A stretch of 38,986 bases of DNA from a virus (Duplodnaviria > Caudoviricetes). The notes under the pieces were generated by a model, which saw only the letters and a list, made by a program, of their open reading frames with translations, did no database searches and had not been told where the DNA came from. This document shows positions 1,354 to 31,132 of this stretch, in pieces. Location of the stretch: IMG/VR virus record IMGVR_UViG_3300010206_000044, positions 1 to 38,986 of that record; one strand, written 5' to 3'. A program made the position numbers and the translations under genes. Each line of letters opens with the position of its first letter. Positions within the stretch are counted from its first letter, which is position 1.

Positions 1354-2073
1354 TTATTGGTTAGGTCTGATTGTATTGAAACGCACACTAGCTTTAACTT
1401 GCGCCAATGCTCTGACTCTATTAAGTGGTATGTCTTTTGGTGAGTGATATTGGTTTTGACTAACGAGTTTAATATACCCGGGTTTTTCTGATTCATGTAA
1501 ATATTTAATTACAATATACTCTTCGCCTTCTAAATCATACGACAGCAAATACATTTCTCCCCAAAATATATTGTTTTCCATGTCATTAATCTTCCTGAAG
1601 ATCACTATGTCTCCCGATTTTATTAAAGGATACATAGAATCGCCTACGGCATATACCCCTCCATCAACCTTACCCATGTTTGGTAGTGTAATGTAATCTA
1701 TAGGTATAAAATTACCCGGAGATTGGAATAATGATACAAGTCCGGCAGCAGCTTCAATATTGTATATTGGAATTAATTGTTTCTGAAATTTTTTGTAATC
1801 AGTATTTCGATCACTCAAAATTTGTATTTCATCTGCCACTTCTGTCTTTTGAACATCCAACATCCCTCCACGCTCAGTAATTAACCAGTCGGCGGAAATA
1901 TTCGCATTTGCGAATAATGTTTTTTGAATTACTTCAAACGATGGATTCCCTTGCCTTGTGCCTACAATATTCTCAATAACTGTCGGTGCAACTCCAACTG
2001 ACTTAGCAAAAGCACTTTTATTGCCATTATATAGCTCGTCAATTACTTTTTTAAAACGCTGATTTATAGTCAT
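1354..2073 (-). CDS. Phage repressor, HTH plus S24 peptidase (CI/LexA-like)
   Basis: N-terminal HTH (KSAFAKSVGVAPTVIENIVG..QGNPS); S24 motifs GDSMYP and VIK; divergent from the early operon. ATG 2073 preferred over TTG 2094. Confidence 0.9.
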   Translation of the reverse strand: MTINQRFKKVIDELYNGNKSAFAKSVGVAPTVIENIVGTRQGNPSFEVIQKTLFANANISADWLITERGGMLDVQKTEVADEIQILSDRNTDYKKFQKQLIPIYNIEAAAGLVSLFQSPGNFIPIDYITLPNMGKVDGGVYAVGDSMYPLIKSGDIVIFRKINDMENNIFWGEMYLLSYDLEGEEYIVIKYLHESEKPGYIKLVSQNQYHSPKDIPLNRVRALAQVKASVRFNTIRPNQ

Positions 2074-2087
2074 AACATAAATTATAT

Positions 2088-2150
2088 TACGCAAATGCGA
2101 AAAATAAATCGGGAATTTGTTGCAAGTGTTCGCAAAAGCGTATATATTTG
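2088..2150 (+). promoter_or_regulatory. Lysis/lysogeny switch: two palindromic operators and a Bacteroidota -7 promoter box
   Basis: TACGCAAATGCGAA (2088-2101), TTCGCAAAAGCGTA (2129-2142), TATATTTG (2143-2150) with TTTG at ~2116. A third copy, TTCGCATTTGCGAA, lies at 1901-1914. Confidence 0.65.
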
Positions 2151-2208
2151 CAAAACATTTGAGAACAAAAACACTTTGAAACGGTAAAAGTACAAAAAAA
2201 GTAATAAG

Positions 2209-2406
2209 ATGGAAAAAGGCAACAAAATTATTGTGGATTACAAGGTTAAAGGGATGCTTTTAGAGATTGGGACTTACCCTACTATACGCAAGGCGCTGGC
2301 CGGCAAACAAGACACCCCACAATGCGTGCGTATACGTGAAAAGGCCATTGAGCTCGGAGGAATGGAAATACAAACAAAGAAAATTCGCAAAATAGCTGTC
2401 GGATGA
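2209..2406 (+). CDS. Small basic protein in the Cro/Ner position
   Basis: First gene divergent from the repressor; 65 aa; HTH-like 'TYPTIRKALAG'. Confidence 0.65.
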   Translation: MEKGNKIIVDYKVKGMLLEIGTYPTIRKALAGKQDTPQCVRIREKAIELGGMEIQTKKIRKIAVG

Positions 2407-2428
2407 TTTGAAAAACAATTTGAATAAT

Positions 2429-2569
2429 ATGAAAAAGAAAATTTTATCTGCACTATACGTGCATTTCAAATCGAATATTTACGAGTGGCTGCTTCTTATA
2501 TTATCAATCGCTTTTGTGATCAGCATGATGATAGGTGCTATTTGTCCACGTGACCCTCAACAGTTTTGA
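2429..2569 (+). CDS. Small membrane protein (46 aa, absent from ORF track)
   Basis: MKKKILSALYVHFKSNIYEWLLLILSIAFVISMMIGAICPRDPQQF; fills the gap and stops 2 nt before the transposase ATG. Confidence 0.5.
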   Translation: MKKKILSALYVHFKSNIYEWLLLILSIAFVISMMIGAICPRDPQQF

Positions 2570-2571
2570 TT

Positions 2572-4605
2572 ATGTACGAAACTTACAATAACACCATAGC
2601 GGTTCCGGTAAGACAGATTATAGATGCAGGAATCATCAGTAAGTCTAATTATGATCAACTGGTAGCTCGTAAAAAGGTAAAGGTGTTGCAACGCGGATGT
2701 CTTGGTACTCCTGCGTTGGCTGACTTTTCGAGTTTTCCGGAGCGATTCCGTAGGATTATGGAGACTGTTTTTGGTGACCCTAAAGCCGAAAAAAGCACAA
2801 ACGTACTTGACGAGTTTCTTGGCCAGGACACAAAGGCTATTGAGTTTTATACCTCATACGAGGTGGACGATACCAGGTACCTGCCAGCAGAAACAATAAA
2901 GGAATACTACGCTAACGCGTGCGTGCTGAATGCCATTCATTTATTACTTAACTCGCGCCGATCACTTCAAAAGATGTGCGGAGGCACTGTTAAGGCATAT
3001 TGGCCAACCATAGCTAAAAATGTAATGGACATTGATCGCGAACAATACCCGCACTCATTGCCAATGAATGACCGTCGATTAAAAGACAGGTACAACCAAT
3101 ACCAAAAAGGTGGGTATGAAGTTTTGATTCATAAAAATTTCTGCAACCAAAATTCGCGAATCGTTGACGAAAGGCTTGAAATGCTTATTCTTTCAGTTTA
3201 CTGTATGACTAACAAGCCATATGCAAGTTGGGTTTCGGAGGATTATGAGCGATTCACTAAAGGCGAAATTGAGGTTGTGAACATTCAAACGGGTGAAATA
3301 TTTAACCGTATGGACTTTTACAATGAAAATCGTGGTGAGTTTATAACCGTATCGGATAAAACTTGCTGGAATTACATCAACAAGCCCAAAAACAGAGCTA
3401 TTGTAGACAGTTATCGCGCTGCCGGCCATAGATTCTTATCTACTATCCGCCCACACATGCATCGCCATGCACCTAATTTCTCATTGAGTAAAATATCGCT
3501 TGATGACCGCGATCTACCACGCAAAATGCACAACGGCGACCGTGTTAAAGCCTATTATGCTTATGATGTTGCAAGTGGCTGCCTGATTGGCGCTTCTTAC
3601 TCAATACGCAAAGATGTAGGTCTGTTTATCGGTTGTATTCGTGAAATGTTTCGATTTATTGACTCGCGCGGTTGGGGAATGCCCCTCGAAATGGAGGTTG
3701 AACATCACCTTGTAAGCAACTTTAAGGATGATTTAATGAAAGCCGGTGTTGTGTTCCCATTTGTTCACTGGTGTGCTCCAAGCAACTCACAGGAGAAACA
3801 TGCCGAGCAACTTAACCGACAAAAGAAATATGGCTACGAAAAGCGCTATCAGGATGGTATTGGTCGTTGGTACGGAAAACTCGAAGCAAACCAAACAGGT
3901 GGTGAGCGTATTTACGACGAAGCTAACAACAAGTATACTGTAAAGGAAAAAACATGGAGCTTTGAACAGTTAGTGGCCGACGATATTCACACAATAGCTC
4001 TTTACAATAACGGACTGCACCGGGATCAGAAAAAATACAAAGGAAAAACACGAATGCAGGTAATGGAAGAGAACCTAAATCCGAACCTTGCAAGTATTAA
4101 CCGCCCTTTGCTGGTTCGCTACATTGGCGAATGCACTACTACAAGCATTCAACGCAACATGTACTGTCAGGTTCAGCACTCAGACTATATGCTTCCTAAC
4201 CCTGAAGTTCTTGGAAGACTGCAACCAAACAACTACACAGTTCAGGCTTATTACATGCCGATTAATGCTAATGGGGAGAACCAAATAGACGAAGTGTATT
4301 TGTATCAGCATGACGATTATCTGTGTGAAGCTAAGAAAATTGTGAAATACAATACATCGCATGCAGAATGGACTTATGCCGATACGGAGGCAATGACCGA
4401 ACAGGCAAAATATATCGCACAATTCGACAGAATGATTAAAGATGGTCGCGAAAAAATATCAAGAGTTCAGCTCCTGCAAAATTTGGATCAATATGCCACC
4501 ATTGAAGTAGAAACCGCAAACCCGGAACCGGCAACAGAGCAATATTTTGACCATGACGAAAGCTTTGAAGCCAATGCTGCTGAATGGGGATTAAACAGCC
4601 TTTAA
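2572..4605 (+). CDS. MuA-like DDE transposase
   Basis: 677 aa; 'SLDDRDL', 'YYAYDVASGCLIG', 'SQEKHAE' integrase-core-like segments; directly upstream of an AAA ATPase. Confidence 0.88.
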   Translation: MYETYNNTIAVPVRQIIDAGIISKSNYDQLVARKKVKVLQRGCLGTPALADFSSFPERFRRIMETVFGDPKAEKSTNVLDEFLGQDTKAIEFYTSYEVDDTRYLPAETIKEYYANACVLNAIHLLLNSRRSLQKMCGGTVKAYWPTIAKNVMDIDREQYPHSLPMNDRRLKDRYNQYQKGGYEVLIHKNFCNQNSRIVDERLEMLILSVYCMTNKPYASWVSEDYERFTKGEIEVVNIQTGEIFNRMDFYNENRGEFITVSDKTCWNYINKPKNRAIVDSYRAAGHRFLSTIRPHMHRHAPNFSLSKISLDDRDLPRKMHNGDRVKAYYAYDVASGCLIGASYSIRKDVGLFIGCIREMFRFIDSRGWGMPLEMEVEHHLVSNFKDDLMKAGVVFPFVHWCAPSNSQEKHAEQLNRQKKYGYEKRYQDGIGRWYGKLEANQTGGERIYDEANNKYTVKEKTWSFEQLVADDIHTIALYNNGLHRDQKKYKGKTRMQVMEENLNPNLASINRPLLVRYIGECTTTSIQRNMYCQVQHSDYMLPNPEVLGRLQPNNYTVQAYYMPINANGENQIDEVYLYQHDDYLCEAKKIVKYNTSHAEWTYADTEAMTEQAKYIAQFDRMIKDGREKISRVQLLQNLDQYATIEVETANPEPATEQYFDHDESFEANAAEWGLNSL

Positions 4606-4629
4606 AACACCAATTAAAACACCAAAATA

Positions 4630-5490
4630 ATGAACACGGAAACAAAACAAAGAGTAGTAGAGGCAATGAGAACCGCCCGTACAAACTACGACAGCAACGC
4701 CAAAATGGCCGTATCGCTTGAGATAAGCTCATCTGTACTGAGCAGGATTTTTAATGGCGAAATTGAAGGTTTACTAACCGATGCAAAATGGTTCAGCATA
4801 GCCCGCCGACTTGATGTACAGCTTAGAGATGAGCCTGTATGGGTGACTGCTAAAACTCCGGCTTATCAATTCATTTATGCTCAGTTGCTGGCATGTCAGA
4901 AAAACAGTCTGAGCGGGTTGCTTTGCGACGTGGCCGATTTAGGCAAAACACATACCGCTCGTTGCTTTGTGAAAGAAAACAAATACGCAGTGTACATTGA
5001 TTGCTCACAAGTAAAATCGAAACAAAAACTTATCCGCCAAATAGCAAAAGAACTGGGGTTGGGAAACACAGGAAAGTACAGCGATGTGTACGCGGATTTG
5101 GTGTTTTATCTGCGATCTATTCCCAACCCCATTATCATACTTGACGAAGCCGGCGACCTGGACTATCCGGCATTCTTAGAGCTAAAAGCATTGTGGAACG
5201 CTACCGAGGGAGCTTGTGGCTGGTACATGATGGGCGCTGATGGACTTCGTGAAAAAATCAAACGGGGAAAAGACCTAAGTAAGGTTGGTTTCTCTGAGAT
5301 TTTCAGAAGATATGGCAGCAGATATCAGAAAGTAACACCCGATGGCGCTGATGCTTATGATGACTTTGTTCGCGAACAAGTGGCAATGGTGGCAAAGGCC
5401 AATCATCCGAATGTCAATATCCCGGCAATGATCGCAAAGGTAAACGGAAGTCTTACGAGGGTGAAAATTGAGTTGAATAAAATGCGATAG
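4630..5490 (+). CDS. MuB-like transposition AAA+ ATPase
   Basis: N-terminal HTH-like region, Walker A-like DVADLGKT, Walker B IIILDEAG. Confidence 0.88.
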   Translation: MNTETKQRVVEAMRTARTNYDSNAKMAVSLEISSSVLSRIFNGEIEGLLTDAKWFSIARRLDVQLRDEPVWVTAKTPAYQFIYAQLLACQKNSLSGLLCDVADLGKTHTARCFVKENKYAVYIDCSQVKSKQKLIRQIAKELGLGNTGKYSDVYADLVFYLRSIPNPIIILDEAGDLDYPAFLELKALWNATEGACGWYMMGADGLREKIKRGKDLSKVGFSEIFRRYGSRYQKVTPDGADAYDDFVREQVAMVAKANHPNVNIPAMIAKVNGSLTRVKIELNKMR

Positions 5491-5492
5491 CC

Positions 5493-5684
5493 ATGGTCAC
5501 CAAAAAACAAAGGAACAGATTGTACAAAATTCACTACAATCTGAGAAAGAAGGGAAATCACGTCAACGGCAGAAAAAGGAGCGTAATTAAACGCAAAAGG
5601 GAACTTACGGATATTGAGCGTAAATGGCTTACTGAATTGCAGAATTACGACTACTGCGTATCGGATGATCTTTTTTCAGAATAG
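5493..5684 (+). CDS. Hypothetical basic protein
   Basis: 63 aa ORF closely packed in the early operon. Confidence 0.6.
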   Translation: MVTKKQRNRLYKIHYNLRKKGNHVNGRKRSVIKRKRELTDIERKWLTELQNYDYCVSDDLFSE

Positions 5685-5731
5685 CTAAAAAACGAACGAA
5701 TTATAAACGAATTGCACTGGACAAACGAATA

Positions 5732-6352
5732 ATGGCACTAAAACGAGCTCTCACGGTACAAAACATACTTGATAAAAAATATAAACTTATTGATTTTACC
5801 GGCGCCTGGTACGATGCCTTTAAAAAACCGGAAATGACAGGTGTTTGGTTCATTTGGGGAAACTCCGGGAATGGAAAAACAAGTTTTGTGATTCAGCTGA
5901 TAAAGGAGCTTGCAAAATTCGACAATGTATTGCTTAATAGCAGGGAGGAAGGAACGAAACATACCATGCAGGAAAATCTGATAAAGTTCAATATGAGCGA
6001 GGCAAAAGACAACAAGGTGCATTTTGTTGACGAACCGATAAATGACCTTACAACACGCCTTAAAATGAAGAAATCGGCGCGAATCGTGGTTATTGATTCC
6101 TTTCAGTACATGATGATGAGCTATAAGGATTATATCGAATTTAAAAGTCAGTTCCCGGATAAACTCATAATCTTTATCAGCCATGCTGATGGGAAGAATC
6201 CTGCAGGCCGGAGCGCTAAAAGTGTAAAGTTTGATGCCGGATTGAAGATATGGGTGGAAGGTTACCGGGCATTTAGCCACGGAAGATATAAAGGACCAAC
6301 TGAACAATTTGATATTTGGCCTGAAAGAGCAAACAAGTATTGGGGAGAATAA
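5732..6352 (+). CDS. RecA-like P-loop ATPase
   Basis: Walker A GNSGNGKT, Walker B VVIDSFQ. Confidence 0.85.
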   Translation: MALKRALTVQNILDKKYKLIDFTGAWYDAFKKPEMTGVWFIWGNSGNGKTSFVIQLIKELAKFDNVLLNSREEGTKHTMQENLIKFNMSEAKDNKVHFVDEPINDLTTRLKMKKSARIVVIDSFQYMMMSYKDYIEFKSQFPDKLIIFISHADGKNPAGRSAKSVKFDAGLKIWVEGYRAFSHGRYKGPTEQFDIWPERANKYWGE

Positions 6353-6376
6353 AAATTTAAAATCAAAACAAAGAAT

Positions 6377-6853
6377 ATGAACACAACGGAAATCACTCAC
6401 AAAAATCTTGTAAAGAAGTTTCACACGCTACTGAGCAAGTACTCCATTCGTAACGAGGACAAATTGACCATTCTAGGCACATTTGGAGTTGAAACATCGC
6501 TCGACCTAAGTATTGACCAGTTGGCTCAGGTATGTGATGCAATAGAAAAAACCTTTGGCAAAAAGGAAGATGACCAACTTGCAAAACTTGATACTATGCG
6601 TAAACGCCTGATAGCTTCAATTTTTGCATGGCGTGCGAGTCTTGGGGCTCCGGCTGATATGAATCTTGTAAAGGCAATTGCCTGCCGTGCTGCTGAAATA
6701 CCGGAAGGTTATGCACTAAGCGTAAGATTTAACTCAATACCTGAAGAGAAATTGCGAAGTCTTTACAACGCCTTTAAACACATGGCTAAAGACATGGGCA
6801 AGGTAAAGGAAATGACACAGGAAATGATAGATAAATTAACAACACTTAATTAA
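6377..6853 (+). CDS. Helical early protein, possibly GemA/gp16-like
   Basis: N-terminal 'FGVETSLDLSIDQL' resembles the GemA-type repeat; position in the early operon. Confidence 0.5.
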   Translation: MNTTEITHKNLVKKFHTLLSKYSIRNEDKLTILGTFGVETSLDLSIDQLAQVCDAIEKTFGKKEDDQLAKLDTMRKRLIASIFAWRASLGAPADMNLVKAIACRAAEIPEGYALSVRFNSIPEEKLRSLYNAFKHMAKDMGKVKEMTQEMIDKLTTLN

Positions 6854-6860
6854 TACTCAC

Positions 6861-7007
6861 ATGGAAGAAATTACATTAGAACAGCGCATTGAGGAAGTCA
6901 CAGAGTGGCTCGAAACGCACGAAGTTGACGATCCGGATTACCCGGATAAGTTTGCAGAATTACAAAGATTGGAGGAGCTTTATGAAGCGGAACAGTTTGA
7001 TGAATAA
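6861..7007 (+). CDS. Highly acidic 48-aa protein (absent from ORF track)
   Basis: MEEITLEQRIEEVTEWLETHEVDDPDYPDKFAELQRLEELYEAEQFDE; ATG 7 nt after the previous stop. Confidence 0.6.
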   Translation: MEEITLEQRIEEVTEWLETHEVDDPDYPDKFAELQRLEELYEAEQFDE

Positions 7008-7107
7008 CGGGTGCTTTTGGACCTTTATAGTATCGATGGTTATAACTGTAGGATTTTGGTGGTTTGTGATATGGGGAATTGCTAAATTATTAAACTTAAT
7101 ATTATAA
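6982..7107 (+). CDS. Small membrane peptide
   Basis: Hydrophobic 'FWTFIVSMVITVGFWWFVIWGIAKLL'; start uncertain (6982 or 7000). Confidence 0.5.
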   Translation: MKRNSLMNNGCFWTFIVSMVITVGFWWFVIWGIAKLLNLIL

Positions 7108-7112
7108 AATAA

Positions 7113-7733
7113 ATGGTACAGACAAACAAAAATGAAACATGGATTGACGAGTCGGGGACTCATATTCCATACAAGCGGATAACAAAGTCCGAACGGTTAA
7201 TGGAAGCAAGTGCTTCAGTTCTTGTAAAAAAGGCCACAGCGGTTAACGATCGTTTAATAGCCTTTAAGAAAGAGATTAAACAGATATGCGAGGATGTTGA
7301 ACAGGCATTTTTGGACGAAAACAAAATTACCAGAGATGAAAAGTTTAAGGGTAATTACACCTGGTATAATTTCGACCGATCGATAAGGGTTGAGCGCTCA
7401 GTGAATGAAGCTTTGCAGTACGACGACCAGACGATCATGGCAGCCAAAGAGATTTTGCATGAGTTCCTTAGTGAGTCACTTGATAGTTCAAAGGATTTCG
7501 TAAAAGAAATGATTCTGACGGCATTTGAGAACAAGAATGGCAAGTTAGATCCTAAAAAGATTACACCGCTTACAAGACACGAAAAAAGGGTAAATGACCC
7601 ACGCTTCACTGAAGCATGTAACCTGATTAAAAAGGCGGAACGACGCCCGGACTCTAAAGTATATTACCGCGTATCGGTTAAGAATGTAGCCGGTGCTTAC
7701 GAGGCAATTGAATTGAATTTTTCTAACATTTAA
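7113..7733 (+). CDS. DUF3164-like Mu-phage early protein
   Basis: 'WIDESG..IP', 'KGNYTWYNFD', terminal 'IELNFS' patterns typical of the family. Confidence 0.75.
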   Translation: MVQTNKNETWIDESGTHIPYKRITKSERLMEASASVLVKKATAVNDRLIAFKKEIKQICEDVEQAFLDENKITRDEKFKGNYTWYNFDRSIRVERSVNEALQYDDQTIMAAKEILHEFLSESLDSSKDFVKEMILTAFENKNGKLDPKKITPLTRHEKRVNDPRFTEACNLIKKAERRPDSKVYYRVSVKNVAGAYEAIELNFSNI

Positions 7734-7776
7734 TAATAATAACCAGTTCCTCACACGGAACACAAAACAGAAAATT

Positions 7777-8211
7777 ATGCATACATGGTTTGAAACCGTA
7801 GTCTCCTACGAAAAAACTGCCGAGGAAGGCAGAATTGTAAAAACAACCGAACACTACATGGTAGATGCGCTCACTCACGCAGAAGCAGAGAACAGAATTA
7901 TTGAAGAAATGAAACCGTTCATTAGCGGCGAGTTTCAAGTGTCGAAAGTTGCTCGAAAGAAAATTAACGAGATTTTCTACAACGAAAATGGAGATAAGTG
8001 GTACCGCGCAAAAGTAAATTTTGTAACTCTTGATGAGGACAAAGGAATTGAAAAGAAAACAGGGGTGACGATGCTTGTACAGGCCTGCGACATGAAGGAA
8101 GCGGTAGAAGGTATTATCGAAGGTATGAAGGGTTCTATGGCCGATTATGAGATTCATACGGTGGCCGAAACTCCGATAATGGATATTTACAAATATGAGG
8201 CGGCTGCTTAA
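7777..8211 (+). CDS. DUF4494-like protein
   Basis: 'WFETVVSYEK..YMVDALTHAEAE..IIEEM', 'WYRAKV', 'ETPIMDI'. Confidence 0.8.
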   Translation: MHTWFETVVSYEKTAEEGRIVKTTEHYMVDALTHAEAENRIIEEMKPFISGEFQVSKVARKKINEIFYNENGDKWYRAKVNFVTLDEDKGIEKKTGVTMLVQACDMKEAVEGIIEGMKGSMADYEIHTVAETPIMDIYKYEAAA

Positions 8212-8219
8212 ATTAATCA

Positions 8220-8246
8220 GTGGAAGTACTCTCGCAGTACTTCCAC
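8220..8246. other. Perfect 11-bp hairpin directly upstream of the DGR1 targets
   Basis: GTGGAAGTACT-CTCGC-AGTACTTCCAC. Confidence 0.75.
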
Positions 8247-8260
8247 GTAATAAAAAGAAT

Positions 8261-8740
8261 ATGAAAAAACAACTATTTATAGAAGAATCGGAAGCTCGCA
8301 GCCTTTACAGAACTGCCACTCCTGAATTTAAACAAATGCTCGAAACCACTTTTGGAAAAGAGTTTTTCTCGCAGAAAATTACTGACCGTATTAAAACATA
8401 CGAGGATGCTTGTGCTGAACTTGGAATTAGCTTCTTAACTGAAAAAGAATTTAGCACTTCAGGTCTTAAAGGTGATGAAATTATATTACGTAAAATCAAA
8501 ACTATTACTGAAGCATTAAACGAAGGTTGGAAACCAGACTGGACAAACGCAGATCAATACAAGTACTATCCTTGGTTCCGCATGTCTTCCGGGGGCTTCG
8601 TTTTCTACGCTGCGAGTTACGCTTACTCGCTTGCGTATGCGGGTGACGCCTCGCGCCTTTGCTTTAAAAGCAGTGAACTGGCCGAATATGCCGGAAAACA
8701 ATTTCTGCAATTATACTCTGATTATATTCTATATCAATAA
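8261..8740 (+). CDS. DGR target protein 1 (159 aa, contains VR1)
   Basis: ATG 8261; IKTYEDAC motif; VR1 encodes SSGGFVFYAASYAYSLAYAGDASRLC. Confidence 0.9.
   Translation: MKKQLFIEESEARSLYRTATPEFKQMLETTFGKEFFSQKITDRIKTYEDACAELGISFLTEKEFSTSGLKGDEIILRKIKTITEALNEGWKPDWTNADQYKYYPWFRMSSGGFVFYAASYAYSLAYAGDASRLCFKSSELAEYAGKQFLQLYSDYILYQ
8583..8663 (+). repeat. DGR variable region VR1
   Basis: 81-nt ungapped match to TR1; 15 mismatches, all at TR adenines. Confidence 0.97.
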
Positions 8741-8770
8741 CCGCCGAAAGGCACAAAAACAATTTTACAC

Positions 8771-9148
8771 ATGGAAAAAGAAAAAGCAACAATGGAAAGC
8801 ATCAAAACAGTAGAAGATGCTTGTAATGTAACGGGAATGCCTGCCACTCCTGAGTTTAACGAAGTACCTGAGGAACTTCGCGAGTATTTAAAAGCCGTAT
8901 ATGAGGCTGTAGTTATAACCATGGCACTTGTTGGCGATTGGAAGGCTGACTGGAACGACAGTAACCAACGTAAATGGTTCCCTTGGTTCCGCATGTCTTC
9001 CGGGGGCTTCGTTTTCAGCGATTCGGTTTGCGCTTACTCGTATGCGCGTGCGGGTTACGCCTCGCGCCTTTGCTTCCCAACTGAGGAATTGGCACGATAT
9101 GCAGGCCGTCAGTTTACTGACGTTTACAGCAGAATTATTCTGAAGTAA
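8771..9148 (+). CDS. DGR target protein 2 (125 aa, paralogue of target 1, contains VR2)
   Basis: IKTVEDAC motif; WKADW..PWFRMSSGGFVF..SRLCF shared with target 1. Confidence 0.9.
   Translation: MEKEKATMESIKTVEDACNVTGMPATPEFNEVPEELREYLKAVYEAVVITMALVGDWKADWNDSNQRKWFPWFRMSSGGFVFSDSVCAYSYARAGYASRLCFPTEELARYAGRQFTDVYSRIILK
8994..9074 (+). repeat. DGR variable region VR2
   Basis: 81-nt ungapped match to TR1; 16 mismatches, all at TR adenines. Confidence 0.97.
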
Positions 9149-9156
9149 TAACAAAT

Positions 9157-9365
9157 AGGCTGTTTGTCTTTGTGAGGTTGTCTTCCAGGGGCTTCGTTTT
9201 CAACGATACGAATTACGATAACTCGAATGCGAATGCAGGTAACACCTCGCACCTATGCTAAAAAGATACAGATACAAAGACAAAGGCCTTGCCACTTGGC
9301 AAAAAATAACTTACTCTAATGTGTGCCGGTAGCCAAAGGCGAACGCTCGCAAACGAAAAGCAAAG
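9157..9365 (+). ncRNA. DGR RNA 1: template repeat TR1 (9179-9259) plus structured flanks
   Basis: Non-coding, AAY-rich copy of VR1/VR2 (21 adenines); enclosed by TTTGTCTTTGT (9163-9173) / ACAAAGACAAA (9274-9284); two hairpins before the RT start. Confidence 0.95.
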
Positions 9366-9367
9366 CA

Positions 9368-10363
9368 ATGAAAAGACACGGAAACTTATATGAACAGGTA
9401 TGCAGCGAGGACAATATGGTTCTCGCTTGGGAGAAAGCCAGAAAAGGCAAAACAAACACATACGGTGTGAGGCTCTTTGAAAAGGATTTGGAAAACAACA
9501 TGAAGCAGTTGCGAGATGAACTCGCATCCGGAACTTATCGGACTTCGGAATATAGCGTATTTACCATTTACGATCCGAAAGAACGCGAGATATACCGGCT
9601 TCCTTTCCGGGACAGAATCGTTCACCATGCTATCATGAATGTGATGGAGCCTATATGGACAAGTATATTCATTCAGCATACATACAGTTGCATAAAAGGG
9701 CGCGGAATACATGCCGTTTTAAAGGCTTTGAAACGAGATTTAAACGATGTTGAAAATGCCCGGTACTGCCTAAAAATGGATGTGAAAAAGTTTTATCCTA
9801 GCGTGGATCACGAAATACTAAAAGCAATTATCCGAAAAAAGGTAAAAGATAACCGGTTGCTTAATTTGCTTGATCTGATTATTGACAGTGCGCCTGGTGT
9901 TCCAATAGGAAATTATCTAAGTCAGTTTTTCGCCAATCTGTATCTGAGCTATTTTGATCATTGGTTGAAAGAAACGAAGCAAGTAAAGTATTACTACAGA
10001 TATGCTGACGACATGGTGATACTTGCACCGGATAAGCCGTATTTAAACAAGTTGTTGACCGAAATAACCTTTTATCTGTACATTGAATTAAACCTGCAGT
10101 TAAAGGGCAATTATCAGGTGTTTCCGGTCAATTCTCGCGGCATTGACTTCGTAGGTTACAAATTCTACCATACGCACATTTTAATGCGTAAAACGATTAA
10201 AAAACGGCTTTGCCGAAAGGCTGCAAAGCTCAATAAAAGCAAGCAAATAACAGACAAAGAATATAAAATTAAAATAGCTCCTTGGCTCGGTTGGGCTAAG
10301 CATTGTGATTCAAAAAACTTATTAAAAAAGGTACTCAAAAATGAAACGATTCTCGGATTTTAA
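9368..10363 (+). CDS. DGR reverse transcriptase
   Basis: MKRHGNLY start, FRDRIVHHA, LKMDVKKFYPS, GVPIGNYLSQ (DGR-type SQ motif), YRYADD, GIDFVGY; adjacent to TR1. Confidence 0.97.
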   Translation: MKRHGNLYEQVCSEDNMVLAWEKARKGKTNTYGVRLFEKDLENNMKQLRDELASGTYRTSEYSVFTIYDPKEREIYRLPFRDRIVHHAIMNVMEPIWTSIFIQHTYSCIKGRGIHAVLKALKRDLNDVENARYCLKMDVKKFYPSVDHEILKAIIRKKVKDNRLLNLLDLIIDSAPGVPIGNYLSQFFANLYLSYFDHWLKETKQVKYYYRYADDMVILAPDKPYLNKLLTEITFYLYIELNLQLKGNYQVFPVNSRGIDFVGYKFYHTHILMRKTIKKRLCRKAAKLNKSKQITDKEYKIKIAPWLGWAKHCDSKNLLKKVLKNETILGF

Positions 10364-10658
10364 TATAACAACAGGAACTGACAAAAATATATTTGTAGTG
10401 CCTGTAATTTCAATAGATGAGTTGACTAATTGTGAGGTTGAGATATTAGATTATGAAAAAGGCGTTAAAACACGTCACGGCGAAAACAGGTATATCGTGA
10501 AAGTTAAGTACGAAGGTTCAGAACGAAAGTTTTTCACGAATGCAGCCCCAATTAAAGAGGCATTAGATAAAGTATCAAAGTCAGATTTCCCATTTGTGGC
10601 TGTTATTAAACAGCAGCGTTTTGGAAGTGGGAGTGGTAAAACATTTTATTTTACATGA
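10341..10658 (+). CDS. Hypothetical beta-rich protein overlapping the RT end; candidate DGR accessory factor
   Basis: 105 aa; overlaps the RT 3' end by 23 nt. Confidence 0.7.
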   Translation: MKRFSDFNITTGTDKNIFVVPVISIDELTNCEVEILDYEKGVKTRHGENRYIVKVKYEGSERKFFTNAAPIKEALDKVSKSDFPFVAVIKQQRFGSGSGKTFYFT

Positions 10659-12132: not shown

Positions 12133-12654
12133 ATGAAAAACACTGCTTTAATTTTATTCTTGTTTTTAACCTTAACGGCCAGCGCCCAGGTTAAATATGA
12201 TACTATCGGTACCGATTTTGTTTACTATGAAAACATTGAAAAATTAAGACCGAAAGTTGACGGTTCTTTGGAGTCTTGTAAACGAAACTTTGCCTTTCTG
12301 AATTCCGAAGATTCGCAATCAACTTTACAGCTTATCTATCAATCTAAAGATTCTATCCGTATTGTATTCAGCTTTGACAAGCTTGTTTCCGGAGAAGATC
12401 AGGCCTTAGAGATAAAGGGTAAAGGGTATTATAAGTTATATACTATAAAAGGCCGGTTCCTTGATTTGTTTCCTATCTGGAAAACTAAATTTGATGATAG
12501 TTCGACACAGGATGCGGTGATAAAGGCTAAAAATTCAACACCTGTATATGTTCGGATTAAGGATAAGGATTATTTATGCAGATTATATGGAGCTGGTGAA
12601 AACTGGACAATAAGCGTTAGCGAACAAATAAAACCACATTATTCTATTAAATAA
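12133..12654 (+). CDS. Exported protein (moron-like)
   Basis: Signal peptide MKNTALILFLFLTLTASA-Q; own TAACTTTG box (12104-12111) and terminator. Confidence 0.7.
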   Translation: MKNTALILFLFLTLTASAQVKYDTIGTDFVYYENIEKLRPKVDGSLESCKRNFAFLNSEDSQSTLQLIYQSKDSIRIVFSFDKLVSGEDQALEIKGKGYYKLYTIKGRFLDLFPIWKTKFDDSSTQDAVIKAKNSTPVYVRIKDKDYLCRLYGAGENWTISVSEQIKPHYSIK

Positions 12655-13751: not shown

Positions 13752-13843
13752 GTAAAACGGTCGTCCGGCCACTGAACATGGTAGAGCGGATTACAAAAAT
13801 TCCCGTTTTTCAGATAAAAGCATCCTATTTTAGGGTGCTTTTT
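13752..13843 (+). ncRNA. Putative ~90-nt sRNA convergent with the MuF gene
   Basis: TATATTTG -7 box (13740-13747), nested stems (13754-13809) and terminator AAAAGCATCCTA-TTT-TAGGGTGCTTTTT (13816-13843). Confidence 0.55.
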
Positions 13844-15006
13844 CTGTATAACAACACTCCAGTACGGGTTTTAAAACCCGATTTTGTCAACTCAAACATA
13901 GTTCTTGCTTCATTTTCAACAGCTACTACAAGCATTGTTTTGCCCTGATAATATTTTATGTAATGAGTGGTCAATGGTTCTTTGTCACCGCGCTTCAGCA
14001 CACTCCAAATTTCGTCCGGCTTTTCAATTATACTTTTTACATTTGGCAGCAGTTTGTAACGGTCGCCCTGTTTATGAAAACTTAAATGGCTTTTAAACGA
14101 TTCGGGAACTAACACCGATATATTGTTTTTATCCTTCAGTACAATGTTTTGTTTGTCGCCTTTCAGGCTATTCCAATAAGTATCATATTCGGTTTTATTG
14201 TCGAGCAATTTAACCACTTCCTTTGCTTTTTGCTGCATAGCTTCAGTAGATCGTAATCCGTAGTTTTTCCAATCTAACGGATTTTTAAGGCTATTGTAAT
14301 ACGGGTGATTATCTTTGAATATAAGGCGGGTTTTACCCACATTATTGTCGAATATAGTTCCCTTCACATCTTTAGCCACTTGCTTTTCAATCATCACTTC
14401 ATCTTTGGTTGAGTATTTAGAAGCAACGCCAGGAATAACAGTACATCTACAGTTCCACGCCAATGGCGGATACATACGATTCCATATCGGATGACTTTTT
14501 GGATATGTCAATCCATCGAGTGCTGCGTGTTCTGGGCGCACCCTGTCATCGCCTATAGTTGAAAACTCCAGATACTCACTTTGAAGCGTATCCCACTTAT
14601 GAGCCATAATAGCAGACTGCATTGCGGTGTCGTATTCCGTTTGCAAGTACGTTTCATTGAATAGCTTTCCTTTTTCAACAATAGCTTTGCGGAACTCAGT
14701 AAACGAAAGCATTTCGCCGGTTGACTTATTAAACATTAGGTTACGGAACTCTAATAGTTCAGTAAGTGACTTGGCAGCCGAAAAATGATATATATTTCGG
14801 GTTAAGTATGATTTAAGGATGTTCCTGGTATCATCATAATCGAATGTTTGAGTAGTAAGCCCTCTGCCAACTAAACCTGTACTAATCGCTTTATTCAATT
14901 GGTTTGCCGTTTCAAAATAGAGCCTTTCCGGTATTACTCCGTTTTCCAGTTGTTCACTTAGTAGAGCTGTTGCAATTTCAGTGTAAATGTCATCAGAGTT
15001 ATCCAT
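13825..15006 (-). CDS. MuF (gp30) minor head protein with C-terminal putative BECR-fold (PBECR2-like) nuclease domain
   Basis: MuF motifs 'YLQTEY', 'DDRVRPEH..LDG', 'PPLAWNCRC'; C-terminal 'IIEKPDEIW...YIKYY'. Frame is open to 15102; first ATG at 15006. Confidence 0.85.
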   Translation of the reverse strand: MDNSDDIYTEIATALLSEQLENGVIPERLYFETANQLNKAISTGLVGRGLTTQTFDYDDTRNILKSYLTRNIYHFSAAKSLTELLEFRNLMFNKSTGEMLSFTEFRKAIVEKGKLFNETYLQTEYDTAMQSAIMAHKWDTLQSEYLEFSTIGDDRVRPEHAALDGLTYPKSHPIWNRMYPPLAWNCRCTVIPGVASKYSTKDEVMIEKQVAKDVKGTIFDNNVGKTRLIFKDNHPYYNSLKNPLDWKNYGLRSTEAMQQKAKEVVKLLDNKTEYDTYWNSLKGDKQNIVLKDKNNISVLVPESFKSHLSFHKQGDRYKLLPNVKSIIEKPDEIWSVLKRGDKEPLTTHYIKYYQGKTMLVVAVENEARTMFELTKSGFKTRTGVLLYRKSTLK

Positions 15007-15073
15007 GAAAGCCAAATCGTGTAAGTGATCACCGCATCCACAAGTCTTATAATAATTATTCAGACTTATTTCC

Positions 15074-16369
15074 TCAATCCCTCCAAAAAAAAAAGTCAGC
15101 AATCAGATCGGCCAGATTCTTTTTACTTTTTGCAATAACAACATCTTTTTTACCCGGTATTTTCTGAGCGGTTGGCTGTTGCTGCACTACCTGTTGTTGT
15201 GCCACTTTTTCGGCTTCCTGTTTGGCTTTTAGTTCATCGTAATTGTCTGGTTTCGGCACACCATAAGTTTCATACCAATAATCATCACCAACCGGCACTT
15301 TTGAACTAACTTCTTTATCAATTTCCAAGCGTACTTTAAGTTTATCCAAGTCGAGTTCTTTTTCAAACTCAAATTTACCATCAACCGGGAAGCCATACGA
15401 AGCCAACACATCTTTAAACCATTTCTGATTCAGTTTTTTGACAATAAACTTCAGGTCTGATTTGGTGATTTGCAGCTGCTGTTCTTCGTGGGTTTTGCTT
15501 TGTGCATATCCGCTCGATTGGCTCGATTTACTTGTTTCGGTATTTCCGAGAATAGTAACGGACATTTCATCGTTACAAGCCCCGATAAGGCGTGTTTGCA
15601 GCTCGCCTGTTCCGTTGGATGTTTTACCGTCCAACATCTCAAATTTAGCCTGTTTTGGCACCATCATAGCCAACGATCCGCCCGACTCATTGAGTATTTT
15701 GCGCAATTCATTTTTTGTCTGTGTATCGTAAGCATCGTAGTAGATAATGCGTACAGGCTGACCGAAAATTTCTACATACTGAGCAAAATCGCCAAAACCG
15801 GAGCGTTTGTAAAGCGCATACAAAGAACACTGCAATAGCTTGCCTAAATCTTTAGCATTTCCAATGACATTTATAAATTTATCGGTAGTGTAGTCTGTAC
15901 CGGTATAATCGTATTGCGATTTAGTAATAACTCCTTTTTCCGGACGTATGTGTTTGCGTGGAATTTCAACAAAATCGAACTCCTTACCTACGATAAACTG
16001 AACGCCTGAAATTCCCCAGTATTTACTTTCCATAATCAGTTCGATGAGCCGACCAAAGTTTTCAGATTCAATCAGGTCATCGTAAGCATCTACTTTTTTG
16101 CCATTTTTATCCACAAAGCGTATAGCCTTGTTTTTGACAGCATCGGTACGCTTTTCAATTATCCCGGATAAATGGCCATCGATAGTAAGTACATCGTGAT
16201 ACAAATCGTACAACTGTGTGCGATTTGGCACGTAAATACTTTCGGCACGTTCAATGGCCGCTTTCAGCTTTCCGGCATCTTTGCGGTTACGATCAGGAGC
16301 TACCTGAGTCATGTCATTTATAATGACGTTTTTTGGCATTTTGCCCTTGGTTACTTTTACGTCGGCCAT
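15074..16369 (-). CDS. Portal protein (Mu gp29 / DUF935-like)
   Basis: 'DGHLSGIIEKR', 'YVEIFGQPVRI', 'MSVTILGNTET'; position in the head block. Confidence 0.88.
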   Translation of the reverse strand: MADVKVTKGKMPKNVIINDMTQVAPDRNRKDAGKLKAAIERAESIYVPNRTQLYDLYHDVLTIDGHLSGIIEKRTDAVKNKAIRFVDKNGKKVDAYDDLIESENFGRLIELIMESKYWGISGVQFIVGKEFDFVEIPRKHIRPEKGVITKSQYDYTGTDYTTDKFINVIGNAKDLGKLLQCSLYALYKRSGFGDFAQYVEIFGQPVRIIYYDAYDTQTKNELRKILNESGGSLAMMVPKQAKFEMLDGKTSNGTGELQTRLIGACNDEMSVTILGNTETSKSSQSSGYAQSKTHEEQQLQITKSDLKFIVKKLNQKWFKDVLASYGFPVDGKFEFEKELDLDKLKVRLEIDKEVSSKVPVGDDYWYETYGVPKPDNYDELKAKQEAEKVAQQQVVQQQPTAQKIPGKKDVVIAKSKKNLADLIADFFFWRD

Positions 16370-29364: not shown

Positions 29365-30885
29365 ATGGTAAGTTGTTATTATGATGTTGACACTAATATG
29401 TGTCGCGTTGGCGGTAAAGATTATTCCGCAGGCAATTGTGTTCTTTCTCAGTCAGATGGTCGCGTTACTCTTGAAATTGATGGCCGGTGTCGTATAGATG
29501 GCGTTTTACTTAGTCAGATAGTCGATAAATACGGTAATGCATATCCGGATTATGATACCTTCCGTACAGCCATAAAAAATTTTTTCGTTAACGCCTCTGT
29601 CAGTAATACCGCTGATTGGACTACTTTGATAGAGGCTCAATTTAGTTACGGTGTTCGAGTTGACTTGTTGAGTTCAAATCCAACACTTACAAGGATAGGA
29701 AATCTTGAACTACATAAAACTTTACCGATTCATAAGTTAATGAGGGGTTGTTTGCAAAAAGAGGACGGATCAGTTAATTATTATTTGAATCCGACAAACT
29801 GGGCGCAAAAATCAGATGGAACTGCATCGGTTCTCGATGGAACTGATGGAGATGTACAAGTTCATCTGCCTAGGCGATATTTTAAATGCGAAAAGATAAC
29901 ACCTATTGTTTGGGATGTCAGATATTCGGACAGACAAATTCCCGGATATACACTTATTCAGGATGAATATGTATCGGCATTTGAAGCATCATTGAATAGG
30001 ACTACTAATAGATTGTGCAGTGTGGTAAATACTAGCATGACATATAGGGGTGGTACAAACGAAGCTACTTATGATGGTACATCTAAATCATTATTGGGAA
30101 AACCTGTTACAAACACAAATCTGACAAATTTTAGAATCTATGCGAGAAACAAGGGATCTATCAGATGGAATTGTAATGTATATTCAATTCAAACGCAAAT
30201 ATTCTGGCTCTTTGCAGTTGAGTATGCTACGTTAAATTCTCAGTTGCCTGTTGCTGGATTAGATGCTAATGGCTATCGTACAGGTGGATTGGGAAATGGA
30301 ATAACAACGGCGAACGATACCGAATGGTTAAATTTCAATGGACGCAATCCATTCTGTAATTGCGGGGTTACTAATTCGCTCGGCAATGGTAGTGGTGAAG
30401 TGTCATTTACTGTCACGGATTTTGGTGGTGCAGGTGTGAACAGATCGTTTACAGCTAACCGATATCGCGGCATTGAAAATCCGTTTGGCCATTTATGGAA
30501 ATGGACGGATGGCGTTTTGGTCGACGTAAAAACAGATGCAGCTGGTGGTACAAGTAAATTATACACTAGCTCTGATGCTTCAAAATTTAGCTCTGTAGCT
30601 TTTACTGACTACGATTATAAAGGCTTAATTACCCGTGATGAAGGATTTATCAAAACAATTATGTTCGGAGCATCTGGAGATATAATGCCGACTACTGTCG
30701 GTGGATCATCCGCTACTTATTTTGCCGACTATTTCTATCGCGACATTACAGCATCAGTTATTAAGGGTGTGTTGTTTGGCGGTTATGCTGCGGATGGTTC
30801 GACTGCGGGTCTCGTTTTTTCGAGTACGGCTTCTTCGCCTTCGCTTGCGTATTCGGCCATCGGCTCCCGGCTTTGCTTTATTTAG
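29365..30885 (+). CDS. DGR target protein 3; tail-associated putative receptor-binding protein with C-terminal CLec-like variable domain
   Basis: 'DGTDGDVQV', 'YRGIENPFGHLWKWTDG', C-terminal 'VLFGG.A..G..AG...IGSRLCFI'; carries VR3. Confidence 0.9.
   Translation: MVSCYYDVDTNMCRVGGKDYSAGNCVLSQSDGRVTLEIDGRCRIDGVLLSQIVDKYGNAYPDYDTFRTAIKNFFVNASVSNTADWTTLIEAQFSYGVRVDLLSSNPTLTRIGNLELHKTLPIHKLMRGCLQKEDGSVNYYLNPTNWAQKSDGTASVLDGTDGDVQVHLPRRYFKCEKITPIVWDVRYSDRQIPGYTLIQDEYVSAFEASLNRTTNRLCSVVNTSMTYRGGTNEATYDGTSKSLLGKPVTNTNLTNFRIYARNKGSIRWNCNVYSIQTQIFWLFAVEYATLNSQLPVAGLDANGYRTGGLGNGITTANDTEWLNFNGRNPFCNCGVTNSLGNGSGEVSFTVTDFGGAGVNRSFTANRYRGIENPFGHLWKWTDGVLVDVKTDAAGGTSKLYTSSDASKFSSVAFTDYDYKGLITRDEGFIKTIMFGASGDIMPTTVGGSSATYFADYFYRDITASVIKGVLFGGYAADGSTAGLVFSSTASSPSLAYSAIGSRLCFI
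30766..30875 (+). repeat. DGR variable region VR3
   Basis: 110-nt ungapped match to TR2; 20 mismatches, all at TR adenines. Confidence 0.97.
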
Positions 30886-30908: not shown

Positions 30909-31132
30909 AGGTTGTTCATTGCAAGTGTGTTGTTTGGCGGTAATGCTACGAATAGTTCGAATGCAGGTCTCGTTTATTCGAATACGAATAATTCGCCTTC
31001 GAATGCGAATTCGACCATCAGCTCCCAGCATTGTAAATTTTTGATGTAATGAAAACCCTGCCTCTTGGCAAAAAAATACATAAAAACAAGATCGTTGGTA
31101 GCGCAAGCGAAGGCGATTAAAGTAAAGCAAAG
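30909..31132 (+). ncRNA. DGR RNA 2: template repeat TR2 (30924-31033) plus structured flanks, with no adjacent RT
   Basis: Intergenic AAT-rich copy of VR3 (27 adenines); enclosed by TTCATTGCA (30915-30923) / TGTAATGAA (31045-31053); same 3' hairpins as the TR1 RNA. Confidence 0.95.

Follow-up and report, generated by a model that had tools for sequence, protein, structure and literature searches.

The window, which here means the whole stretch of 38,986 nucleotides that was analysed, is a 39-kb provirus record of a transposable (Mu-like) phage. Its genes follow the order repressor, MuA, MuB, ATPase, DUF3164 and DUF4494, after which comes a DGR cassette with two small target genes, a template and a reverse transcriptase (RT); the head and tail genes lie from ~12.7 kb onward. 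The features are:

1354..8211, early region of the transposable phage: CI-like repressor on the minus strand; MuA, MuB, ATPase, DUF3164 and DUF4494 on the plus strand
8220..8246, perfect 11-bp hairpin directly 5' of target 1, terminator-like on the minus strand
8261..8740, plus strand: target 1, the longer of the two paralogues (159 aa, pI 5.35), whose N-terminus carries a helical extension of ~38 aa; PHROG 11581
8583..8668, plus strand: VR1, with 17 mismatches to TR1, 17/17 at TR adenines
8771..9148, plus strand: target 2, the short paralogue, 125 aa, pI 5.05; PHROG 11581
8994..9079, plus strand: VR2, with 20 mismatches to TR1, 20/20 at TR adenines
9179..9264, plus strand: TR1, non-coding template with six AAC/AAT codons in the target frame
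9271..9365, plus strand: spacer 3' of TR1, resembling the spacer behind TR2 (score 75.5, against 60.5 for the best of 500 shuffles)
9368..10363, plus strand: intact DGR-type reverse transcriptase, 331 aa, with GNYLSQ at 181 and YADD at 212
10341..10658, plus strand: small basic protein, 105 aa, pI 9.0, PHROG 19665, overlapping the RT stop; candidate accessory factor
29365..30885, plus strand: tail-region protein, a conventional DGR target, PHROG 5302, with a C-terminal VR at 30767-30875
30925..31033, plus strand: TR2, with 19/19 mismatches to the tail VR at adenines and without adjacent RT

The nearest genome loci were found in Bacteroidia, Bacteroidales and Paludibacter MAGs, and in one of them MuA and MuB are 97 and 99% identical to those of the window, respectively. 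At the place of the hairpin (window positions 8195-8266) related strains have 265 or 576 different letters, which points to a variable insertion site just 5' of the cassette. The promoter scan of the window found promoter-like sites in numbers not clearly above chance (36 vs 28.5 ± 5.9). PADLOC gave no match among the nine non-RT proteins scanned from the cassette region, and the local context therefore gives no particular pointer to counter-defence. The plasmid search gave no match.

All mismatches between the two repeats and TR1 are situated at template adenines, which number 26 in the 86 nt (hypergeometric p 8e-12 for VR1 and 1e-14 for VR2). Of the 26 adenine sites, 15 differ between VR1 and VR2, and no site outside the adenines does. 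Chance repeats were rejected as the source of this pattern by the adenine-only mismatches. The RT matched RVT_1 and PHROG 1423, the latter with an E-value of 3e-135. With a template and repeats that differ at adenines, an intact RT near the template, and a template that stays constant in relatives while the repeats vary, the cassette is confirmed as a real DGR with paired small targets in the early region. TR1 has the capacity to encode ~3e10 possible peptides across residues 107-130, and the scaffold codons G111, R132 and L133 are held within the VR. The spacer at 9271..9365 is likely to be an RNA element for RT recognition and priming.

The initial annotation had placed the DGR targets in the early, non-structural region, and this was borne out both by the adenine-only repeats and by the recurrence of the early context in unrelated phages. 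It had also proposed that the variable peptides of the two paralogues diversified independently. Eight adenine sites show the same change in VR1 and VR2 (scaffold codons and AG-to-GG bias), so that independent diversification holds for the central codons. Recent gene conversion between the paralogues was rejected as a general process, since 21 of 33 loci share no bases upstream of the TR match; in the window, VR1 and VR2 have 13 identical bases in common there.

The second template, TR2, is located behind the tail target. Since it has no RT of its own and its 3' spacer is like that of TR1, it is likely, judging from the sequence, to be a satellite template that depends in trans on the RT at 9368; one RT would then serve three targets from two templates. 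A 96%-identical relative of the tail locus (L093; L numbers denote the loci compared) has no RT within its 1.5-kb flank either, and RT was present in 63 of the 80 tail-target loci.

Five lineages carry an identical 80-nt TR together with different VR pairs, which have 11-19 mismatches each, 0-1 of them at non-A sites. Three DNA runs (wastewater, bioanode) provided contigs of related strains, in which 14 of the 14 VR differences listed are at TR adenines; as this comparison comprised 40 of 239 rows and the strains differ at many RT positions too, it gives support, not proof, of current activity. Template adenines before G read G in 180 of 185 cases (86 distinct VRs). The residues at AAY codons were mostly those that base bias alone predicts (D 73, Y 67, G 58, N 48 and S 45 of 462), with an excess over the base-bias expectation for just two residues, Tyr (67 vs 51) and Leu (23 vs 10). 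Two close Mu-like relatives, L088 (9494-10381) and L089 (3591-4485), have kept both targets and the TR, and the RT is gone, which indicates that ongoing diversification is not always kept. The RNA data of four runs consisted of sparse, low-depth contigs, one run being empty, and pieces of the TR region occurred in libraries of two studies.

No Avd-like gene was found in the cassette, there is no ORF between target 2 and the RT, and no gene in the cassette qualified as an Avd, HRDC, MSL or CH1 accessory. Homologues of the small basic gene that follows the RT were present in 49 of 53 RT loci and in none of the 27 loci without RT, and this gene and the RT have been lost together in L088 and L089. 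A homologue is also present 3' of the tail-targeting RT in L209, and when loci were retrieved by means of the post-RT protein, one of 24 was without RT (L200). In L014 a gene of the post-RT type is situated upstream of the TR, at the usual position of Avd. Neither the window copy nor 28 homologues matched any Pfam or NCBIfam family, and the protein had no PDB sequence match; the CH1 accessory protein, in the part of Wu 2018 (PMC5758913) available, is 160-169 aa long and acidic. The post-RT protein has an ESM Atlas neighbour at 0.96, with PF17427 (Phi29-type SSB) on 44% of the members, a lead by which the gene could possibly encode an SSB-like accessory factor. It possibly serves as an accessory factor in place of Avd, and would as such suggest a specific way in which DGRs that lack Avd could function.

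The two targets are 49% identical over 114 aa and matched PHROG 11581 (function not known) with E-values of 2e-36 and 2e-18. An in-frame ATG at 8195 would make target 1 181 aa long; the homologues start at the methionine at 8261. The two ORFs of 159 and 125 aa, the motifs that they share and their variable peptides were found as described in the initial annotation, and the ~25 residues that it had placed beyond the VR amount to 22-23 when counted after the repeat. The targets had also been described as lacking a signal peptide, which agrees with a hydrophobicity screen, crude but with a positive score for the control ORF at 12133: none of the 253 family proteins has a hydrophobic stretch at its N-terminus, and five have an internal one.

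A profile search of 50%-identity representatives showed that the target family comprises 5,288 clusters at 50% identity. The viral loci studied were the best 80 of 174 and include near-duplicates. An RT is present in the flank of 53 of them, and in 51 of those with an RT there are 2-3 targets in tandem. An adenine-only template match of at least 45 nt was found for 100 of the 110 target ORFs in RT loci. For the comparison of neighbourhoods, 21 loci were chosen for their long flanks, and 137 out of 233 candidate ORFs were scanned. In 17 of the 21 loci the neighbours are genes of replication, recombination or regulation, including RecT, SbcC-like proteins, NinB, exonucleases, primases, polymerases and an anti-repressor, and one of these loci also has a head gene 3 kb off; of the remaining four, one had only a transposase and three nothing informative.

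In unrelated Bacteroidota phages the family is thus surrounded by replication and recombination genes; the layout of the cassette comes back in Mu-like, lambda-like and polymerase-encoding phages, and homologues occur as stand-alone small genes in Crassvirales. Patchy presence among close Mu-like relatives was not observed, all five relatives found via the ATPase carrying a target. Members of the family are carried also by the cultured phages LoVEphage, BI-TP1, PV4-TP1 and Versailles. The Versailles member is situated between NinB and replisome genes and that of LoVEphage between cytosine methylase, Dam and RtcB, both outside the structural modules, yet the former is annotated 'tail protein'. 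In four gut phage contigs (loci L021/L134, L034/L140, L042/L123 and L059/L116) a single tail-linked TR matches a remote small early member too, with adenine-only differences over the 3' 56-88 nt, the template being 112-113 nt long in three of these contigs. From the replication-type neighbours, the non-structural positions and the lack of N-terminal hydrophobic stretches, we infer early, cytoplasmic action of the targets as the best reading of the sequence data.

The long target precedes the short one in 35 of the 41 two-copy loci. When the VR was left aside, the nearest relative was the gene at the same position of another locus in 76 of 82 genes and the own neighbour in 0 of 82, and recent duplication was therefore rejected as the source of the paired repeats. 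A quick tree on 97 columns, in which many forks were open, had 9 label changes, compared with 34 when labels were shuffled. The long-then-short pair is thus, as far as these comparisons reach, an old and kept arrangement. Two-domain single chains made up 20 of the best 150 library matches, ten of them complete long-then-short fusions, though two-domain matches score higher and are hence over-represented at the top of the list. These fusions, known from protein sequence alone, have a VR-like segment in each of the two domains (among proteins P0003-P0147), and 7 of the 10 checked are single-member clusters. The kept order and the natural fusions favour joint action of the pair as a putative two-headed binder.

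The model of target 1 (pLDDT 89, built on 103 sequences) predicts two N-terminal helices, which form the extension of the long form, then a helical core, strands at 101-109 and 112-121, a loop at 127-130 whose prediction is poor, and two closing helices at 138-156. The variable codons 116-130 map to the second strand and the loop of the model. The 22-23 residues after the VR are predicted to form the closing helix pair, which would account for the internal position of the VR. In the model of a 188-aa member with a longer VR (pLDDT 90) the same hairpin is predicted to gain a helix pair and a third strand. The N-terminal extension of the long form appears exchangeable among the loci: it is helical in most first targets, and the first targets of L048, L050, L053, L054, L057 and L077 and of L020 and L059 have differing extension types, the other types being a different, beta-rich-looking sequence in some and a third type in gut phages.

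Foldseek against the PDB gave no match at E 0.001 for the model of target 1, and for that of the 188-aa member it gave nothing at E 0.001. In VIA wide (48,161 chains) the best match of target 1 had Z 4.0 (rmsd 6.3, 106 aligned), none had Z ≥ 5, and no lectin was present among the best 50 matches listed; in a second fold search its best Z was 2.7. The best match of the 188-aa member, with Z 3.6 (rmsd 3.9, 69 aligned), was a chain of the SSV19 tail entry, the value for target 1 being Z 3.8. These Z scores do not go beyond what common helix packing gives and were obtained without a folded positive control, so that a relation to CLec is still possible. The BFVD matches of the target were uncharacterised phage proteins only, crAss-like ones included, and the ESM Atlas gave only unnamed viral clusters for target 2. 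PDB sequence searches with the target, tail and post-RT profiles found nothing significant. None of 103 members matched the CLec-type Pfam families (FGE-sulfatase, DUF1566/Lcl_C, Fib_succ_major) at E 0.05, a test that is insensitive because the domain of the window's tail target, which we take from its motif to be a CLec, was unmatched too.

When the target family was aligned with the tail-target family of the window, only the last 26 VR columns aligned (HHalign probability 95%, E 3e-8). This alignment does not establish a minimal CLec fold for the small targets. Together with the four gut phage contigs in which one template matches both kinds of target, it would fit the transfer of a VR segment from tail-type targets to a different scaffold; a strongly reduced lectin is possible as well.

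Phage DGRs are mostly understood as receptor-switching devices, and that of the Bordetella phage BPP-1 has the layout mtd-avd-TR-brt. The window shares with BPP-1 the TR, VR, RT and adenine-specific mutagenesis, and also the AG-to-GG bias, which was seen in 180 of 185 sites of the window family. Unlike BPP-1, the window has no Avd-like gene between target and RT but an unrelated small gene 3' of the RT, and its early targets form a pair of small proteins that have the VR inside the chain and are not tail fibres. The small targets differ from those of tail-targeting DGRs also in having only the last 26 VR columns in common with the tail-target family. The AG-to-GG bias has been measured for bRT, according to the available part of that report (10.1101/2025.03.24.644984). 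As in the hankyphage, going by the portion of its description available (PMC12135933), the phage is transposable with a Bacteroidota host, and the tail target and TR2 are of the same general kind. The DGR targets described in the accessible parts of other reports are tail, pilin or kinase proteins (PMC12386605, PMC8143477, PMC8525569, PMC12135933, 10.1101/2025.11.01.686033, 10.1101/2024.11.15.621889), and multiple and very small targets, together with four accessory classes, are recorded in what was available of Wu 2018 (PMC5758913).

One of the closest described counterparts is the second target of Quimbyvirus/LoVEphage (ORF 80/84), which in the accessible part of Benler 2021 (PMC8008677) is called a C-type lectin and proposed to be non-structural and conflict-related; the window's targets are like it in their non-structural position and in the proposed role in phage-host conflict. 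The family member of LoVEphage, found via L065 and L024, is 39-40% identical to the L065 member over 94% of it, and its neighbourhood (cytosine methylase, Dam, RtcB) agrees with Benler's description. In Quimbyvirus/LoVEphage, however, the target is a single gene, described as a C-type lectin and remote from the tail-linked DGR that serves it, whereas in the window the whole cassette is early and its two paralogues have a dedicated template; an RT is missing at the tail template instead. In the available part of Dahlman 2025 (PMC12629997), a distal VR close to methylases is reported for four prophages.

The target family probably corresponds to PC_00007 ('Phage_other') of Roux 2021 (PMC8144416), to which it is linked by traits and shared datasets. 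In the portion of that study available, PC_00007 is viral, from FCB hosts, non-structural or without known function, with primary and secondary targets arranged in tandem beside the RT, and in the 30 rows listed the VR lies at 0.64-0.82 of the length; this portion gives no structure, pairing or function for it, and cautions that unannotated viral targets may be structural proteins not yet known. In the literature outside subscription papers, as far as the texts were available, no structure, partner or virion/proteomic data were found for the target family. The contrast to tail-fibre targets to which the initial annotation drew attention is real but less new than it implied, because a non-structural target of the family is already published. 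What is added here is the pairing, the scaffold, the accessory gene and the satellite template.

The DGR has rewritten a short segment in both early paralogues, at template adenines only, and we consider it fairly probable that the pair is a two-headed intracellular variable binder of a host protein. By what is known of DGR biology, the TR RNA would be reverse-transcribed with errors at A, and the cDNA would replace each VR separately. Each protein is predicted to be a small helical domain in which one beta-hairpin and loop carry the variable residues. The targets would be expressed early and be cytoplasmic, and the long and short forms may pair, with a partner that differs between hosts; in our judgement this would most likely be a defence protein or host machinery, neutralised or recruited early. 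The small gene after the RT would likely act as accessory factor where Avd is missing, and the RT at 9368 would likely serve the tail template at 30.9 kb too.

One alternative is that the lysogen produces the proteins and that their action is directed at other phages or mobile elements, by superinfection exclusion or as a variable sensor for incoming phage proteins, and not at the host. The window is indeed a provirus with a CI-like repressor, many carriers are temperate, and the low-depth TR-region pieces in the RNA libraries of two studies are at most a weak hint in the same direction. However, the targets lie downstream of the repressor in the same orientation as MuA and MuB, which is a lytic early gene position, the promoter-like sites do not clearly exceed chance (36 vs 28.5 ± 5.9), no effector domain is attached to the targets, and homologues occur in Crassvirales. 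We regard lysogenic action as unlikely. Somewhat harder to credit is that the targets, although encoded outside the structural module, belong to the virion as minor components or are ejected, and bind a receptor on the surface or in the periplasm. The four gut phage contigs where a single TR serves a tail protein as well as a family member, the alignment of the VR with that of tail targets and the annotation of the Versailles member would agree with this, as would the caution in the available part of Roux 2021 (PMC8144416). Against it stand the replication or recombination context in 17 of 21 loci, the absence of fibre or anchor domains in the targets (the 95th percentile of the length of single-domain matches is 180 aa) and the separate tail target of the phage with its own template; furthermore, PhANNs called 1.6% of PC_00007 structural in the part of the data available, PC_00007 being linked to the family by traits.

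A near-neutral variation, in which the conserved core has a fixed function, the loop is a passenger of a captured mobile DGR and selection acts on the tail target, seems to us quite improbable. It could account for the persistence of the targets after RT loss in L088 and L089, for the crAss-like homologues that are stand-alone small genes and for a residue usage near mutational bias, and the RT probably serves the tail TR too. On the other hand, a dedicated template with six AAY codons adjoins the small genes, 100 of the 110 targets at RT loci have a template match, the scaffold codons of the VR (G111, R132, L133) are held, and the same arrangement is met with in Mu-like, lambda-like and polymerase-encoding phages.

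The two-headed intracellular binder of a host protein thus remains our preferred reading. A bolder form of it, which we put forward tentatively and think may well not hold, is that the strand and loop of a tail lectin have been grafted onto an unrelated helical scaffold, that two such domains pair into an antibody-like early weapon directed at host defences and that a small nucleic-acid-binding protein replaces Avd. If this were true, the family would give DGRs a display scaffold that has neither the C-type lectin fold nor the Ig fold. A scaffold other than a lectin would also contradict the expectation, expressed in the available part of Roux 2021 (PMC8144416), that VR domains not yet characterised will be variants of CLec, and it would put a 125-aa cytoplasmic display scaffold on offer. 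The very large family of small early targets would imply a second, intracellular arms race, which is open to testing since the cultured phages LoVEphage, BI-TP1, PV4-TP1 and Versailles carry members.

Two further genes of the window were recorded downstream of the cassette. A lone ORF at 12133-12654, with a signal-peptide-like N-terminus and without family match, is situated between the early region and the head genes and is a possible moron. The Mu F-like minor head protein at 13825-15102 has a PBECR2 nuclease-like domain at its C-terminus.
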